This document shows positions 32,524 through 39,624 of a stretch of 39,624 bases of DNA, one piece after another. Numbering within the stretch: position 1 is the stretch's first letter; the number at the start of each line of letters is the position of its first letter. The notes beneath the pieces are model-generated. The model had not been told where the DNA came from. It searched no databases and saw nothing but the letters and a program-made list of their open reading frames with translations. Source of the DNA: Clostridia bacterium (GTDB lineage Bacteria > Bacillota > Clostridia > Christensenellales > UBA1242); the NCBI GenBank assembly GCA_045538225.1, contig JAZSQY010000005.1, forward strand, positions 1 through 39,624, written 5' to 3'. The position numbers and the translations under genes are program-made.

Positions 32524-34101
32524 CTAATCATTTCCCAAAAAATGTCTACCGCACTCTTCCAAACTTGGAACTTCAAATTTTTCTAGTTTAAGGCCATAAC
32601 GCATAAATCTATTACCACATTTCCTTAGTTTACGCGCACTGAAACTGTGCAATTTGTTATTGCACGTGAAGAAATCGTTACCACATTCTTGTAAATTTCC
32701 CGCATTGAAACTTGTAATTTCTTCATTACTGCACATAAAGAAATCCCCACATTTTTCTAATTTTTCGAAATTAATATACTTTATGGTTTTGTTCGTAAAC
32801 AAGAAAGCATCTTTGCATTTCCTTAAACGAGGTAAAACTACGCTTGTTAACTGTTCATTACAGTTTAAGAAAAACGAACCAACCTCTTCCAAATTCGGCA
32901 AGTTGATATCTTCCAAAACTCTATTCTGATACAAAAACTCATCACCGCATCTTACCACATTTTCCATCGTTAATTTTTTTAAACTTGTATTGTTGCTCAT
33001 AAATTTACTTTTACAATTCTTAATACTGTCATCCGCATACTCTATAATTTGATTATTCTTATTAACTTTTATGGTTGCATTTCCACCATCTTGTTTTTTA
33101 ATATGAACAACCCCTTTTTCACCGAAATTAATTTTTTCAAATTTACTTAATTCATTTGGAAAAGGATCTTCATTTTTAATATCGTAAGCTTTAACAGTTT
33201 TCTCCTTACAATCGACAATATAACTATCCGCCAAAATTTGATGTTCCGGTAATTTAATAACATTATAATTATCGATAATGATATTATTTGGGCAATAATA
33301 AATATTGTTAATCTCCATGTTATAACGATAATATTTACCATCATTTGCACGTACGTAATTTTCTAATTCAAGATCATTAAATTCTCTTTTTAATTTTTCT
33401 TTTACACCAAAATCCCTTTCAAAAGCATTAGATAAACCAGAAATGATGTTATCTAAATTACTGTTAAATAGATTATCTGGATTATTGACACTATGATTAT
33501 ACCTACTTTTAATTGATACTGTTGAAAATTTATCTTTAGTAAATTGAATGCTAATCACACTTTTATTATATTTATCGTTCCTATCTGGCTCTGGGAAATC
33601 ATCTCTGTTCAATACTTCCGCATCTTTATGTACTGCAAACCAAACACGACACGTATCTAAACGATCGCCTCGAAAAGTACAAAGTTCTTCTCCATTATTG
33701 GATTCAGGTTGATACCCTTCTTGATAAACAGGAGTTGGACGTCCATCAGCTCTTTTGTAATAATGACGAAAAGATTGAATATCTGCTTCCGTTTGACATT
33801 CAGGGTACAGTGTATACCCAGCTTTCGCCATTAATTCGACAGCAGACTTGTCATTGTCGTTTAAATCGGTCGTCTCTTCTCTGAAGATATTATCTACTTT
33901 TTGATAGATAAAAGCTTTGAATTCACTTTCTTTTCCTTGGTTAATAATATCTGAAGCAAGCACACGACTTTTACAGAAATTTTCTTCCAAGAGTTGCGGC
34001 AATAAACCTTCCGTTTCTAAGATACGTTGGAAATCTGCCCGACATAACCTCATCATTTGTTCGCCAAATTTTTGCTTAATAATTTTTAAATCCTTTTCCA
34101 T
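32524..34101 (-). CDS. Paralogue 1 (525 aa): conserved uncharacterised N-terminal module plus about 8 Cys-Gly LRR-type repeats
   Basis: Collinear with the three upstream paralogues (EELCTF, RVWFAV.KD, SIQFTK, RYNH, NLDNIISGLS.AFERD.GV, YYCPNN). No signal peptide or TM. SD AAAGGAAAA. Confidence 0.85.
   Translation of the reverse strand: MEKDLKIIKQKFGEQMMRLCRADFQRILETEGLLPQLLEENFCKSRVLASDIINQGKESEFKAFIYQKVDNIFREETTDLNDNDKSAVELMAKAGYTLYPECQTEADIQSFRHYYKRADGRPTPVYQEGYQPESNNGEELCTFRGDRLDTCRVWFAVHKDAEVLNRDDFPEPDRNDKYNKSVISIQFTKDKFSTVSIKSRYNHSVNNPDNLFNSNLDNIISGLSNAFERDFGVKEKLKREFNDLELENYVRANDGKYYRYNMEINNIYYCPNNIIIDNYNVIKLPEHQILADSYIVDCKEKTVKAYDIKNEDPFPNELSKFEKINFGEKGVVHIKKQDGGNATIKVNKNNQIIEYADDSIKNCKSKFMSNNTSLKKLTMENVVRCGDEFLYQNRVLEDINLPNLEEVGSFFLNCNEQLTSVVLPRLRKCKDAFLFTNKTIKYINFEKLEKCGDFFMCSNEEITSFNAGNLQECGNDFFTCNNKLHSFSARKLRKCGNRFMRYGLKLEKFEVPSLEECGRHFLGND
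32527..33036 (-). repeat. Coding array of about 8 x 22-aa (66-nt) LRR-type repeats in paralogue 1
   Basis: aa 356-525 parse as x(L/F)PxLxxCGxxF(L/M)xxNxxLxxh units. Confidence 0.75.
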
Positions 34102-34137: not shown

Positions 34138-36435
34138 TTACCATGCATACCCATATTCCCCTGGATCAATTCCAGGCATTAATCGATGATCACCATGCAT
34201 CAGGTGTTTATTTTTCTCCAAAGAATTTCGCCCCAAATTTTCCAAAAGTGGTGCATAGAATTTTTCCAACGTTGTGTTATACCGCATAAAACTATGTCCA
34301 CAATTATTCAACCAAGGCAACATTAAATATTTCATTGAATCATTGCATAAAAGAAATTGGTTTCCGCACTGATGTAACCATTGTAAATTCACTTCAGATA
34401 GTATTCGATTCCAAGGCATAAAATCTCTTCCACAAACCGACAGCTGCGGTAAATCTAATATTCGCATACGCCGATTATTGTACAAAAAGTTATCCGCACA
34501 TCGGCTTAGTCGTGGGAAATACACCTCACTTAGAATTTCATTTTTGTACATAAAATCATCCCAACATATTTGTAAATTTGGCATTTCAATTTTTTTCATT
34601 GTCATGTTTTGACGCATAAATCCATCACCACATTCTTTCAATGATGGGAAACATGCTTGCGTTATCGTATTATTAGCACTTAAAAAATCATTACTACATT
34701 CCACCAACTCTGGAACATCTACACATTCAATCTGCTCATTGTTTCGAATAAACGAATGACCGCACTCTTTCAAACTTGGAAAAGAAACATATTTCAAAGC
34801 CTTATTATTAAGTAAGAATTCATCTTTACACTCTTCCAGCATTTTCAAATTAATCATTTCCAAACCTTGATTTGCTGACAAAAAACCCGCACCACATTTG
34901 CGCAACTTTTCCAAAGTTAAAAAACGCAGACTTTCATTTGCTGCCATAAATGAATAACCGCACTCTTCTAGAGCCGGTAAATAAACTTCATTGACTCTTT
35001 TATTTTGAGCAAAAAATTGCTTTTTGCATTCACGAAGCTTAGGAAAAGAAATCTGTTCTACACCTAAATTACAAAACATAAACCCATCACCAACACTTAA
35101 TAACTCGTCTGCATTAATGTGCTTTAAACCTATGTTGGAAAGCATGAAATAATCCCCACATTTTTTCAATTTTGGCAAATCCATGCTTTCCAAAGATTTA
35201 TTTTGGTACAAAAACGAATGATCACATTCTTCCAAGCTCGCTAAATTTATTTTTAACAGATCATTATTTTCGTACATAAAATCAAAACCACAACTCACAA
35301 CATTGGGTAAATTTAAACTCTTTAAAGCCTTATTATAACGCATATAGTTATTACCGCATGTTTTTAAACTTTTATCCTCAAAAGCAATGATTTGCCGACG
35401 CTTATCTAATTTTAAAGTCGCTTGTTCGCCATTTGATTTTATCACTATAATTGACCCGTCTTTATTAGGAATAATGCTCATATTCTCTGCTAAATCGTGA
35501 ACAAAACTATCATGAATATATTTATCATAAAGGCTGATTGTACTTTCTTTAAAGTCAATTACATAATAGTCTGCCAAGATTTGATGTAATGGCAATTGTT
35601 TCGGTTTAAAATTTTCAATCACTACATTATTTGGGCAATAATAAATATTATTAATCTCATGATTATACGGATAATATCGCCCATCATTTGCCAATGTATA
35701 ACCCTCTAATTCGAAATTAGATTTACCACAATGACTTCGGTCTCGCACACCGTAATCTCTTTCAAAAGCATCAGACAACCCACTAATGATATTATCCAAA
35801 TTGCTATTAAAAGTATTATCTGGATTAATCACCGTATGATTGTAACGATTTTTAATCGACAAGGTCGGATACTTTCCTTTGGTAAATTGAATACTAATCA
35901 CACTGGTGCCATATGCATCTTGCCTCATCGGATTTTTAAAATCTTCCCTGTGAATTTTATGTACATCTTTTTTAACCGCGAACCAAACCCGGTCTAAGTT
36001 CAAACGCCCTCCGTTAAATGTACATAGCTCTTCACCTACGCGTAACTCTGGTTGTCCACCATGATAGACTGGCGTTTCAGAGTATGGGCGATAATAATAA
36101 TGCCGAAAAGATTGAATGTCTTCTTCTGTTTTACATTCTGGATATAAAATGTATCCGGCTTGATCTAATAATTCCTTTGCGGACTTATTAATGCTAATTT
36201 TGATTTCATCGCGTTGAATAACTACCTTGGAAAAAATAAATTCTTTAAAATCATCCTCTTTACATTGATTAATAATGTCTTCCGCCAGATTTTTATTTTT
36301 TATAAAATTTTTTTGTAAAATCTCAGGTAAAAGACCTTCAACTTCCAAAATCCGTGCAAAGTTTCTACGGCAAAGATGCATCATTAATTCGCCGTATTTA
36401 TTTTTAATCCACAATAAATCTTTATTATTGTACAT
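34138..36435 (-). CDS. Paralogue 2 (765 aa): conserved N-terminal module plus about 18 Cys-Gly LRR-type repeats
   Basis: Same N-terminal module. aa 351-745 parse into 22-residue units such as NLPNVVSCGFDFMYENNDLLKI and DLPKLKKCGDYFMLSNIGLKHI. Confidence 0.85.
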   Translation of the reverse strand: MYNNKDLLWIKNKYGELMMHLCRRNFARILEVEGLLPEILQKNFIKNKNLAEDIINQCKEDDFKEFIFSKVVIQRDEIKISINKSAKELLDQAGYILYPECKTEEDIQSFRHYYYRPYSETPVYHGGQPELRVGEELCTFNGGRLNLDRVWFAVKKDVHKIHREDFKNPMRQDAYGTSVISIQFTKGKYPTLSIKNRYNHTVINPDNTFNSNLDNIISGLSDAFERDYGVRDRSHCGKSNFELEGYTLANDGRYYPYNHEINNIYYCPNNVVIENFKPKQLPLHQILADYYVIDFKESTISLYDKYIHDSFVHDLAENMSIIPNKDGSIIVIKSNGEQATLKLDKRRQIIAFEDKSLKTCGNNYMRYNKALKSLNLPNVVSCGFDFMYENNDLLKINLASLEECDHSFLYQNKSLESMDLPKLKKCGDYFMLSNIGLKHINADELLSVGDGFMFCNLGVEQISFPKLRECKKQFFAQNKRVNEVYLPALEECGYSFMAANESLRFLTLEKLRKCGAGFLSANQGLEMINLKMLEECKDEFLLNNKALKYVSFPSLKECGHSFIRNNEQIECVDVPELVECSNDFLSANNTITQACFPSLKECGDGFMRQNMTMKKIEMPNLQICWDDFMYKNEILSEVYFPRLSRCADNFLYNNRRMRILDLPQLSVCGRDFMPWNRILSEVNLQWLHQCGNQFLLCNDSMKYLMLPWLNNCGHSFMRYNTTLEKFYAPLLENLGRNSLEKNKHLMHGDHRLMPGIDPGEYGYAW
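34201..35385 (-). repeat. Coding array of about 18 x 22-aa LRR-type repeats in paralogue 2
   Basis: aa 351-745 (395 aa) parse into 18 consecutive 22-residue units with Cys-Gly at a fixed register. Confidence 0.8.
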
Positions 36436-36462
36436 ATTAAATAATGTTAAACCTTTGCTTTT

Positions 36463-36491
36463 ATTTTACACCTTTGTTGTATTGATTTCAA
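36463..36491 (-). promoter_or_regulatory. Putative promoter, TTGAAA-17-TAAAAT, for LRR paralogue 2 (and probably 1)
   Basis: -35 at 36491-36486 and -10 at 36468-36463, then a 27-nt leader containing AAAGG before the ATG at 36435. Confidence 0.55.
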
Positions 36492-36517
36492 GGGTCTACT
36501 AAAAAATTAACCAGCAA

Positions 36518-38275
36518 CTACCTCGTTCCGATAGTCGACACATCACAGCAACTAACTTTATTTTTTAATTTAAAAGCACGTTCTAAACATACTTGAAAAT
36601 GCCTTAACAATTTTGAGGGCTTTTGGCGTAAAGGTTCTTTACTTAAAGTATTATGATATAAAAAATTTTCACCACATTGTAGTAATTTAGGTAAAGATAA
36701 TTCTGTTAAGGATTTATTCCATGCCATAAATCCATTCCCACACATTTGTAATCTCGGCAAGGTTAAAACTTCAATTTTCTCGTTGTGATGTAAAAAATCA
36801 TCACCGCAAATTTTTAAATTTGGGGCTTCAAATTTATTTAAAAAATTATATGAACCCAAAAAGTTATTACCACATTCACGTAACCTTGGAAAATTAACTT
36901 CGGTCAAATTTGGCGAAAAATATAAAAAATCATGACCACATTTTTGTAATTGCGGCATCTTAACAAATTTTAAATTGTTCGAGTAAAAAAAGCTGTCACC
37001 ACATACCAGCAAACTCGGGAGATTTATCTGCGTTAATACTTCATTACTATACATAAAAAAATCATAGCACCGACGCAGTTTTGGCATCTGAAGAATTTCG
37101 ATTGAATTGTTATAATACAAAAAACCAGATAAACATTCTTGCACTTCAGGTAAGTTTATTTCTTTTATGTATTGACTTTTTGCTAAGTATTGCTCCCCAC
37201 ATTGACGCAAGCTATCATCTTTAATTTTCTCAATCTGATTACGGCTATTGAAGGTAATCGTGACAACTCCGCCATCTTTTTTAGTAATTTTAATAACCCC
37301 ATTTTTTTCAATTTTAATAGATTGATTTTCTCCAAGAACGTCGATAAAACTATCATAATGACTATTGTCATACATTCTCACTTCTTTAGTTTTTAAATCA
37401 ATAATAAAGTAATCAAGCAAAAACTGATGCGTTGGTAAAGGTTTAACTTTATTACTATCAATAATGATATTGTTTGGACAGTAATAAACGTTATTAATAT
37501 TATAATTATATGGATAAAATTTACCATCACTTGCCATTACATATCCATCTAATTCAAAGTTGCATCTTTCAGTTTGCATTTTATCAGAAACTCCATAATC
37601 ACGTTCAAAAGCTACAGATAATCCAGGAGAAATATTATCAAGATTATTATTAAAAGTATTATCTGGATTGTAAACAGAATCATTATAGCGATTTTTAATA
37701 GAAAGCGTTGAATATTCGTTCTTTGTAAATTGAATACATAAAACACTTGTCCCGTATTTATCTTGTCTTTGTGGATTTGTAAAATCTTCACGTTTTAGTT
37801 TTTCAGCATCTTTATGAATCGCGAACCAAATTCGATTGCCCAATAGTCTCCCACCGTTAAACGTGCAAAGTTCTTCTCCGACATGATGCTCTGGAACTTC
37901 ACCTTCGTTGTATCTAAGTTTTTTCCCATCTGGTCTATAAAAATAATGGCGAAAGGATTGAATATCTTTTTCTGTTAAACATTCCGGGTAAAGATGATAA
38001 CCTTTTTCCGCTAAGATTTCTGCTGCTTTTTTATTTCTGTCTACATTACACTTTGTTTCTGTTAAATTAGCTTTGTTATATAAAAAATCTTTAAAAGATT
38101 GAATGTGACTTTGTAGGATAATATCCTCTGCCAAAAATTTTTGCTTAGCAAAATACTGATCTAACAACTTTGGTAACAATCCAGGAACTTCTAATAATTT
38201 ATAGAGTTCATCACGACAAAGTTTCATCATGCGCTCACCAAATCTATATTTAATTACATCTAAATCGTTTTTCAT
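36518..38275 (-). CDS. Paralogue 3 (585 aa): conserved N-terminal module plus about 9 Cys-Gly LRR-type repeats and a basic C-terminal tail
   Basis: Same module and repeats. Own TTGAAA-17-TATAAT promoter. Confidence 0.85.
   Translation of the reverse strand: MKNDLDVIKYRFGERMMKLCRDELYKLLEVPGLLPKLLDQYFAKQKFLAEDIILQSHIQSFKDFLYNKANLTETKCNVDRNKKAAEILAEKGYHLYPECLTEKDIQSFRHYFYRPDGKKLRYNEGEVPEHHVGEELCTFNGGRLLGNRIWFAIHKDAEKLKREDFTNPQRQDKYGTSVLCIQFTKNEYSTLSIKNRYNDSVYNPDNTFNNNLDNISPGLSVAFERDYGVSDKMQTERCNFELDGYVMASDGKFYPYNYNINNVYYCPNNIIIDSNKVKPLPTHQFLLDYFIIDLKTKEVRMYDNSHYDSFIDVLGENQSIKIEKNGVIKITKKDGGVVTITFNSRNQIEKIKDDSLRQCGEQYLAKSQYIKEINLPEVQECLSGFLYYNNSIEILQMPKLRRCYDFFMYSNEVLTQINLPSLLVCGDSFFYSNNLKFVKMPQLQKCGHDFLYFSPNLTEVNFPRLRECGNNFLGSYNFLNKFEAPNLKICGDDFLHHNEKIEVLTLPRLQMCGNGFMAWNKSLTELSLPKLLQCGENFLYHNTLSKEPLRQKPSKLLRHFQVCLERAFKLKNKVSCCDVSTIGTR
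36635..37225 (-). repeat. Coding array of about 9 x 22-aa LRR-type repeats in paralogue 3
   Basis: aa 351-547 parse into 22-residue units (one unit of 21). Confidence 0.75.
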
Positions 38276-38341: not shown

Positions 38342-39624
38342 TTAAAAAATTTTATTTAGGTGATTTTTCAAACTCGACACTGCATGTTTAAAATCATTTT
38401 TCAAAACTGTAAGTTTAATCTTAAACGGAGAACAACCCTCATTCCTCCATTCTTTCATTACAACTTTTGAAACGTTAAGTTTTGTAATATTGGGATTCCA
38501 TCTCATAAAATATCTATCCAGTTTTTGTAACTTAGGTACATTAAATTCTTCCAATGAGTTTTGTTCAAACATAAAACGTTTTCCACATTCTTCCAAAGAA
38601 GGTAAATCTATTTTTTTTAACTGTGCGCTAAAATAAAAAAACATTTGACCACACTTTTTTAACTTAGGAGCTTGAAAGGTTTTTAATGATTTGTTCATAC
38701 TTAAAAAACGATCTGAACAAGATTCAAGTGAAGGTAAATTTAAATCCTCTATGGTTTCATTATTAAACAAAAAATAATCCCCACATTTTTTCAAATTTGG
38801 TAAATAAATACTTTTGATAGCCTTATTTTTAAACAAAAAAGAACTTCCAATTTTTTTCAAGTTCGGAAAGCTTGCCTCATTAAGTAACAAATTGTTATGC
38901 AAAAAACCCCATCCGCATTCTTGTAACAAAGAAACATCTATCTTATTAATCAAACTGGCACTCTTTAGAAAGTCATTTCCACATATTTGCAAATATGGAA
39001 AATTCGCTTCCATTAAGCAATTATTATTCTCTAAAAAGTTATCACCACAAATCTTTAAATTTGTTAAATTTAAATCAACCAAGACATTGTTTTTACACAT
39101 AAAGTTATGCCCGCACTCTTGCAAACTTTCATCTTCAAGACCGACAATTTCTCTTTTCTGATTTAATTTTAAAATTGCCACATTACCGTCTTGCTTGGTT
39201 ATTTTCAAGATACCGCCTTTTTCCGCAAGTATCTTTTGGTTAACTCCATACTCAAGCACAAAAGCATCACGTATCTTTTCATCATACAATTTAATCGTAT
39301 GTTGGTTACAATCAACAATATAATAATCAATCAGCATTTGATGGTTCGGTATTTTTATTACCTCTAACTCTTGGTTAATAATGATATTATTCGGGCAATA
39401 ATATATCTCTTTTATTTCATAATTGTATGGGTAATATTTTCCATCATTTGCTTGCACGTATCCGTCAATCTCAAGTGTCGGCCCACACTTTGCCATCTTA
39501 TCACGGACACCAAAATCTCTTTCGAAAGCATCGGTCAGTCCTTCAATAATATTATCTAAATTACTGTTAAATGTATTATCCCCACCAACGGCACGATGAT
39601 TATAACGACTCTTAATTAATAAGA
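38342..39624 (-). CDS. Paralogue 4 (partial; 5' end beyond the window): about 10 Cys-Gly LRR-type repeats
   Basis: The frame stays open upstream of the track's Met (39496) to the window edge. It reads ..LLIKSRYNHRAVGGDNTFNSNLDNIIEGLTDAFERDFGVRDKMAKCG.., which aligns with the middle of the N-terminal module of paralogues 1-3. Confidence 0.85.
   Translation of the reverse strand, partial: LLIKSRYNHRAVGGDNTFNSNLDNIIEGLTDAFERDFGVRDKMAKCGPTLEIDGYVQANDGKYYPYNYEIKEIYYCPNNIIINQELEVIKIPNHQMLIDYYIVDCNQHTIKLYDEKIRDAFVLEYGVNQKILAEKGGILKITKQDGNVAILKLNQKREIVGLEDESLQECGHNFMCKNNVLVDLNLTNLKICGDNFLENNNCLMEANFPYLQICGNDFLKSASLINKIDVSLLQECGWGFLHNNLLLNEASFPNLKKIGSSFLFKNKAIKSIYLPNLKKCGDYFLFNNETIEDLNLPSLESCSDRFLSMNKSLKTFQAPKLKKCGQMFFYFSAQLKKIDLPSLEECGKRFMFEQNSLEEFNVPKLQKLDRYFMRWNPNITKLNVSKVVMKEWRNEGCSPFKIKLTVLKNDFKHAVSSLKNHLNKIF
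38477..39142 (-). repeat. Coding array of about 10 x 22-aa LRR-type repeats in paralogue 4
   Basis: aa 119-340 of the track ORF parse into 22-residue units. Confidence 0.75.

Follow-up and report, generated by a model that had tools for sequence, protein, structure and literature searches.

A 22-residue LRR_5-type leucine-rich repeat with a probably buried cysteine ladder in tandem paralogues of a Clostridia bacterium

Leucine-rich repeats (LRRs) of the BspA/TpLRR class, Pfam family LRR_5, are built from a 23-residue unit with the pattern IPxxVxxIGxxAFxxCxxL. We examined a related repeat in a 39,624-nucleotide (nt) stretch, contig JAZSQY010000005.1 of a Clostridia bacterium (GenBank assembly GCA_045538225.1), which is referred to in its entirety as the window. 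Four tandem paralogues in the window, here called A to D, each encode a conserved N-terminal module of about 350 amino acids (aa) followed by 22-residue repeats with a recurrent Cys-Gly dipeptide. Three other LRR types bear on these proteins. FNIP (FGxxFN) repeats (PF05725), which come from giant viruses and slime moulds and include CroV588 (6NYR), also have a 22-residue unit (PMC9525666). In the cysteine-containing (CC) class, LxxLxLxxCxxL, there is likewise one conserved Cys per repeat inside the conserved segment. Finally, PMC5915736 describes Listeria InlJ, a surface protein anchored by sortase, in which every LRR has Cys in place of a hydrophobic residue; this cysteine ladder is credited to Bublitz 2008 in PMC5915736 and PMC9525666.

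The paralogues occupy four consecutive minus-strand open reading frames (ORFs) that fill the window from position 32524 to the contig end at 39624. Their repeats were parsed with the register anchored on the Cys, which gave the 22-residue consensus hxhPxLxxCGxxFhxxNxxLxx. In 38 window units, position 13 is always Phe (100%) and position 6 is Leu in 92%. Cys is found at position 9 in 34/38 units (89%) and Asn at position 17 in 84%, while Pro at position 4 and Gly at position 10 are present in 71% each. The distances from one CG dipeptide to another are multiples of 22, the sole exception being one of 21. An initial annotation of this DNA, made from the sequence without database searches, had described a 22-residue repeat with a near-invariant Cys-Gly register in about 8, 18, 9 and 10 copies. 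The parse bears out the register and gives about 8, 17-18, 9 and 9-10 copies in A to D; the roughly twofold difference in copy number also holds. The same period was seen in the 120 nearest homologues, which contain 1,513 units and in which 1,345/1,397 steps between units are 22 residues long.

An AlphaFold2 model of paralogue B was built with 114 homologous sequences. The mean predicted local distance difference test score (pLDDT) was 91.7 overall and 95-98 through the repeats. Within each modelled unit, positions 22-1-2 form a three-residue strand and positions 8-9, the second of them the Cys, form a two-residue bridge; the 22-residue periodicity is strict. The best six PDB entries for this model in a Foldseek search are all LRR_5 proteins: 4CP6 (PcpA), 4FS7, 4GT6, 4H09, 4FDW and 4FD0 (E = 2e-8 to 2e-5). 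A solenoid resembling BspA/TpLRR proteins had been anticipated in the initial annotation, which named structure prediction as a check, and a solenoid is what the prediction returned with confidence.

A PDB sequence profile search matched the family profile to 4FS7 with E = 2e-17. In the resulting alignment position 9 falls on the I of the LRR_5 IG dipeptide, positions 13 and 14 (F-h) fall on A-F and N17 falls on the LRR_5 Cys. The motif order, hxhP...(I/C)GxxF...(C/N)xxL, is the same in both. 4FS7 needs one extra residue per unit, sited after the Pro, so the residue that the window repeats lack lies between the Pro and the next core residue. The alignment confirms an earlier reading of the consensus as one residue shorter than LRR_5, with Cys for the Ile of IG and Asn for Cys. 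The exchange of this Ile for Cys in the window lineage is accompanied by Leu instead of Val three residues earlier.

The Pfam LRR_5 model (PF13306) has a gathering threshold of 27.7 bits. Paralogues D (35.9 bits) and C (33.7 bits) exceeded the threshold, B (23.4 bits) fell below it and A had no match. Full-length homologues with Ile or Val ladders at position 9 scored 95-154 bits. Because the Ile-type relatives reach 95-154 bits and the window copies 0-36, the Cys type is the divergent edge of one genuine LRR_5 family. Judged from these scores, LRR_5 membership holds for the family through transitive homology. With the fold class and the LRR_5 alignment agreeing, the repeat is a 22-residue variant of the BspA/TpLRR (LRR_5) LRR. 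Unlike the BspA proteins of this class, the window proteins have no signal peptide or surface anchor, and unlike solved LRR_5 proteins their repeats are fused to a module without a known relative.

The FNIP repeats resemble the window repeats in more than unit length. Both have a dipeptide of a hydrophobic residue and Gly (FG there, CG or IG here), followed two residues on by a Phe that forms a buried spine, and in both the Asn ladder has moved off its classical position. 6NYR was among the Foldseek matches of the paralogue B model, at ranks 24 and 28. However, the window motif is CGxxFhxxN and not FGxxFN, the Phe spine is single here and double in FNIP, and Pfam FNIP gave no match to the window proteins at E ≤ 1. 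The CC class differs in the placement of its Cys, which occupies the Asn-ladder slot, position 9 of the conserved segment. That slot is Leu (unit position 6) in the window repeats, and comparison with the consensus patterns quoted in PMC9525666 puts the window Cys three residues after it, beside the Gly.

What fills position 9 was then compared across the family. The 120 nearest homologues comprise 62 proteins in which this position is essentially all Cys, 42 in which it is all Ile and 16 in which it is Val/Ala. A sample of cluster representatives at 50% identity, which is less biased, gave 47 Ile, 44 mixed Ile/Val/Ala, 29 Val/Ala and 5 Cys ladders. Two proteins counted in the mixed class, P0176 and P0238, have all-Met ladders (e.g. 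MMMMMMMIMMMMML) and constitute a fourth ladder type. Polar residues at position 9 are rare across the family. In Cys-type proteins Cys is present at 500/534 internal units (94%). Conservation of the Cys register in orthologues, which the initial annotation had set as a test, gave a split result: the register is kept in close orthologues, with 96% identity at position 9, and is replaced wholesale in the wider family.

Covariation was computed over 2,612 distinct units. The mutual information between positions 9 and 6 is 0.49 bits, compared with ≤0.13 bits between position 9 and any other position. Cys9 pairs with Leu6 in 631/663 units, and Ala9 and Val9 likewise pair with Leu6. The usual partner of Ile9 is Val6 (658 units), and nearly all units with Ala6 have Ile9 (102/105). 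The coupling is visible unit by unit within single proteins, for example as IIIIVVV over VVVLLLL in locus L051. This pattern, small with large and large with small, is the signature of two side chains that share one packed cavity and compensate for each other in volume. What is new here is a 22-residue variant of a known LRR class; its Cys ladder is probably a lineage-specific core substitution compensated at position 6.

We infer that the Cys side chain is buried because position 9 aligns with the core Ile of LRR_5, because its residue spectrum across the family is aliphatic, because it covaries with position 6 in a volume-compensating manner and because the modelled Cys sits in a β-bridge next to the conserved Gly. 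The Cys9 ladder is thus likely to be a buried core-packing variant of the 22-residue LRR_5 solenoid and not a row of reactive or displayed thiols. The initial annotation had predicted a ladder of thiols along one face. A displayed face is unlikely given the LRR_5 alignment, the residue spectrum, the covariation and the secondary structure of the model, which make position 9 a generic aliphatic core slot. The metal or disulphide stapling proposed along with it is not called for by a slot that holds Ile, Val, Ala or Met in most relatives.

A functional thiol row, at least partly exposed and serving to bind metal, to staple turns together by disulphides or to sense redox state, would account for the 94% Cys occupancy of Cys-type proteins, for the small number of replacements at position 9 between orthologues (given below) and for the ladder type common to all paralogues of an array, and free thiols would be stable in the hosts, which are gut anaerobes according to record titles. 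We nevertheless consider such a row improbable. Most members of the family have Ile, Val, Ala or Met at position 9, so thiol-specific chemistry is dispensable for family function, and neither the alignment of this position with a core Ile nor its volume coupling to position 6 suits an exposed residue. Neighbouring turns of a β-solenoid lie about 4.8 Å apart; with only one conserved Cys per turn, this spacing is too large for disulphides without distortion.

A known precedent for a core Cys ladder is InlJ, where a core hydrophobic residue of the repeats was likewise exchanged for Cys to give a stacked ladder within a solenoid. The two are likened irrespective of where the ladder lies within the unit, as an analogy of design that implies no homology to internalins. 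InlJ, an adhesin of the internalin LRR class, is built from 21-residue units and has a signal peptide and LPXTG. The relationship is no closer than the LRR superfamily: internalin B profile matches were weak (E ~3e-4) and confined to the repeats in the PDB sequence profile search, and neither an internalin cap nor LPXTG was found in the window paralogues by Pfam scan and repeat parse. Because the core Cys ladder of InlJ is found in a surface adhesin, the ladder alone carries no compartment information, and its use as a clue to a reducing or cytoplasmic location was not upheld.

Several points weigh against the interpretation of the ladder as a packing variant and against what follows from it. 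Cys ladders are very pure and Val/Ala ladders are mixed, a purity that could hint at a Cys-specific benefit, yet Ile ladders are equally pure. Burial of the Sγ atom is deduced from alignment, residue spectrum, covariation and secondary structure. A role of the LRRs as a binding arm would follow by analogy with other LRR proteins, and the cytoplasmic location considered below is argued from the absence of recognisable export signals.

The repeats fold into a regular β-solenoid in which each turn contributes strand 22-1-2 to what is presumably the binding face, and positions 8-9 form a second, short strand. If the packing interpretation is correct, Cys9 would take the inward-pointing slot of the Ile in LRR_5 IG and stack on the same residue of adjacent turns, giving a buried Cys ladder with the Phe13 spine and a ladder of Asn17 alongside. 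The small Cys9 is matched by the large Leu6 in the window lineage, just as Val6 or Ala6 accompanies Ile ladders in the relatives, and purifying selection would maintain this packing variant.

Orthologues of the window paralogues were compared in L001 and L004, two related metagenome genomes with syntenic arrays. The order of genes in both is a small gene, genes of ~612, 620, 706-717, 692, 765 and 525 aa, the AP-endonuclease-2-fold gene, def, fmt and rlmN. The orthologues of paralogue B are 76-77% identical to it and also 765 aa long, and those of paralogue A are 78-79% identical and equal in length. Paralogue D is 69% identical to the second gene, of ~620 aa. The orthologue of paralogue C, P0002, is 717 aa long and exceeds C by 132 aa, or exactly six units. 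Because no frameshifted repeat remnant was found in the tail of paralogue C, this change is a clean whole-unit deletion or gain. The window (36436-36517) lacks the 692-aa paralogue that the two related arrays carry between their C and B orthologues, so paralogue content differs between close relatives. Gain and loss of whole units and whole genes do occur, but slowly.

Compared with the L001 orthologues, the ratio of nonsynonymous to synonymous substitution rates (dN/dS) is 0.05-0.10 for the N-terminal module and the repeats alike, a coarse test with dS saturated. At position 9 the nonsynonymous proportion of differences (pN) is 0.02 and the synonymous proportion (pS) is ~0.9. Cys at position 9 is maintained by selection. 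No unit position has pN > pS, so positive selection was rejected for both domains, within the weak power of a test with saturated dS. The diversifying selection that the initial annotation had suggested looking for was accordingly not supported. Positions 22, 19 and 2 vary most between orthologues and lie on or before the first strand. The face formed by the first strand is the usual binding face of LRR proteins.

A uniform Cys register could also have arisen by recent duplication of units, slippage or gene conversion, that is, by concerted evolution rather than selection. The use of one ladder residue throughout each protein, and by every paralogue within an array, would fit such a history, as would the six-unit step between C and P0002, which demonstrates that whole units are gained or lost. 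At the DNA level, however, Tandem Repeats Finder found no 66-nt array in the window, which rejects recent slippage. The units are 49% identical in nucleotides (maximum 70%) and 32% in amino acids, and identity within one gene or between neighbouring units is no higher than between genes. Both Cys codons are in use (TGT 25 times, TGC 10 times), and the Cys is retained between orthologues although dS is saturated. Recent duplication is highly improbable as the cause of the register and is largely refuted for this window. These results support the view, already taken in the initial annotation, that the units and their length differences are old and do not reflect ongoing slippage; A and B have kept the lengths of their L001 and L004 orthologues in spite of the saturated dS.

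Ladder type is a property of whole arrays. It is common to all paralogues of an array, and mixing of Cys with Ile or of Cys with Val/Ala was seen in 0/27 multi-copy loci. In a tree of the N-terminal modules, window paralogues A, B and C fall inside a 19-member all-Cys clade, and each is nearer to an orthologue elsewhere than to its neighbours in the window. The best tree requires at least four changes between Cys and non-Cys, and the Cys clades differ in unit consensus and in secondary unit features. A single Cys-type clade was not rejected by the approximately unbiased (AU) test (p = 0.28). The genetic code may be relevant to how the ladders persist. A single base change in TGY leads to Tyr, Ser, Phe, Arg, Gly, Trp or stop, none of them well suited to a core, while Ile, Val, Ala, Thr and Met interconvert by single base steps. 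The mixed aliphatic ladders fit this interconversion, and we infer that the mutational isolation of Cys codons contributes to the upkeep of Cys ladders.

The N-terminal module was modelled with a pLDDT of 90.4 and consists of a helical start, an α/β part and a β-hairpin part that runs into the repeats. Nothing significant was found for it in Pfam, NCBIfam, PADLOC, PHROGs or a PDB sequence profile search, and Foldseek returned no fold relative at E ≤ 0.001 in PDB or BFVD (best E = 0.14-0.18). Conservation was assessed in an alignment of 110 module sequences using the residue numbering of paralogue B. C101, C138, R144, D173, Y175, S178, Q183, R197 and N270 are invariant, and at least 90% of the sequences also carry C22 and C267. 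On this conservation, the invariant polar residues and cysteines suggest an active or metal site, and the module could be a new metal-binding or enzymatic domain. Two specific assignments were considered and dropped. An ADP-ribosyltransferase-like R/S/E site lacked a fold match and its second acidic residue is not conserved. A Cys-His protease was set aside as no His is invariant in the alignment; the His of the RYNH motif is present in at least 90% of the sequences and is Asp in paralogue C (RYNDS).

No signal peptide, lipobox, transmembrane segment or anchor was found in the four window copies, and neither Pfam nor NCBIfam identified an anchor domain in them. The four paralogues lack a hydrophobic N-terminal stretch; their maximum Kyte-Doolittle score over 19 residues is ≤1.06, compared with 2.43 for a ZIP transporter encoded next door in the window. 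Their C-terminal tails are short and not conserved. The consensus N-terminus of the family is charged, and almost every protein from the representative search has the module starting at residue 1-3. The missing signal peptide reported in the initial annotation is thus borne out, and in the absence of an export signal the window proteins are most likely cytoplasmic.

Among solved structures the nearest are those of proteins from the surface or cell wall, PcpA and cell-surface proteins of Bacteroides among them, and the tandem arrays of up to 11 paralogues of variable length resemble adhesin repertoires. NCBIfam also matched the adhesin HupY/LrrG weakly, at 18-24 bits where the cut-off is 1250. 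All this would be expected if the proteins were BspA-like surface adhesins whose export needs no classical signal peptide, the Cys ladder being incidental. We regard this as unlikely in view of the N-terminal and anchor features just described. Moreover, strong purifying selection and the unit numbers kept between orthologues are unlike fast-evolving surface antigens, and secretion genes do not adjoin the arrays; the neighbours in the window are def, fmt, rlmN and the AP-endonuclease-2-fold gene.

The family extends well beyond the window. The N-terminal module forms ~1,325 clusters at 50% identity and is encoded at no fewer than 499 loci in species-representative genomes. The genomes at these loci are labelled as uncultured Bacilli, Clostridia, Mollicutes/Tenericutes, Christensenella-like bacteria and Erysipelotrichaceae, and the sources of the module are human, rabbit, ruminant and chicken gut, with some sediment. 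This large family has no name and is restricted to uncultured Bacillota, most of them from the gut. A look for sequencing runs bearing on expression or habitat turned up none.

Partner genes were sought by clustering the flanking ORFs over 81 loci. One recurrent neighbour of the LRR genes was identified, a protein of ~97 aa encoded on the same strand with a median gap of 14 nt. The gene was found in 48/81 loci; of the 57 arrays whose flanks extend for 600 nt or more on each side, 39 have it. The C-terminus of the protein is invariant, ending in L-K-R-x-Y-G-stop. Searches of Pfam, PADLOC and NCBIfam gave no match to it, and none among PDB sequences was significant. The window lacks the gene, which probably lies just past the contig end within paralogue D.

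The N-terminal module, possibly enzymatic or metal-binding, is joined to the LRRs, which would serve as an arm. Old paralogues differ in the length of this arm (7-19 turns across the family) and at the surface positions 22, 19 and 2, which might give each paralogue its own binding partner. As a speculation that we think unlikely, the LRR proteins and the small R-x-Y-G protein would make up a cytoplasmic system, not described before, in uncultured Bacillota of the gut. In it the module would serve as a head of a new kind, enzymatic or metal-binding, acting on, or with, the C-terminus of the small protein, the LRR arms of 4-11 paralogues would pick different targets, and the buried thiols would perhaps make the stability of the Cys-type fold sensitive to redox state.

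The Cys register should not be read as evidence of redox or metal chemistry, and its direct importance is limited. It does provide a natural experiment in the design of solenoid cores, with one ladder residue (Cys, Ile, Val/Ala or Met) per array and for all paralogues in a genome, and a compensating Leu/Val switch three residues away. The ladder types can inform repeat-protein engineering and also the annotation of LRRs, since copies of the Cys type can score too low for Pfam. We felt that the more interesting lead was the family itself, with its novel head domain, R-x-Y-G partner, tandem expansion and restriction to gut Bacillota. The small partner gene gives experiments a way to approach what these abundant LRR proteins do.

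The coordinates of the paralogues and their parts are given in the table along with those of the partner gene in L001 and L004. The repeat span delimited in the initial annotation, 34201-35385, corresponds to residues 351-745 of paralogue B.

Table 1. Features of the LRR paralogue array in the window, and the small partner gene in the two syntenic arrays.
Feature	Position	Strand	Basis or remark
Paralogue A, 525 aa	32524..34101	-	ORF list and repeat parse
Paralogue A repeats, 7 full units and 1 truncated	32527-33039	-	
Paralogue B, whole gene, 765 aa	34138..36435	-	ORF list
Paralogue B repeat array, residues 352-747, 17 regular 22-residue units and 1 degenerate	34195..35382	-	
Paralogue B N-terminal module, residues 1-351, α/β part then β-hairpin part	35383..36435	-	
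Paralogue C, 585 aa	36518..38275	-	ORF list and repeat parse
Paralogue C repeats, 9 units, one of 21 residues	36635-37225	-	
Paralogue C tail, 38 aa, non-repeat	36518-36634	-	after 9th unit
Paralogue D, 5' end cut by contig end	38342..39622	-	frame open to window edge
Paralogue D repeats, 9-10 units	38480-39139	-	
Partner gene, ~97 aa	L001:1557-1850	+	precedes first paralogue
Partner gene, ~97 aa	L004:723-1016	+	precedes first paralogue

The contig of the window stops within paralogue D (39622-39624), and the assembly probably broke inside the paralogue array. The largest array seen is that of locus L031 (CANRAA010000001.1), from a metagenome-assembled genome of rabbit-gut Bacilli, with 11 module genes in 22 kb. 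All of its ladders are Val/Ala or Ile/Val.

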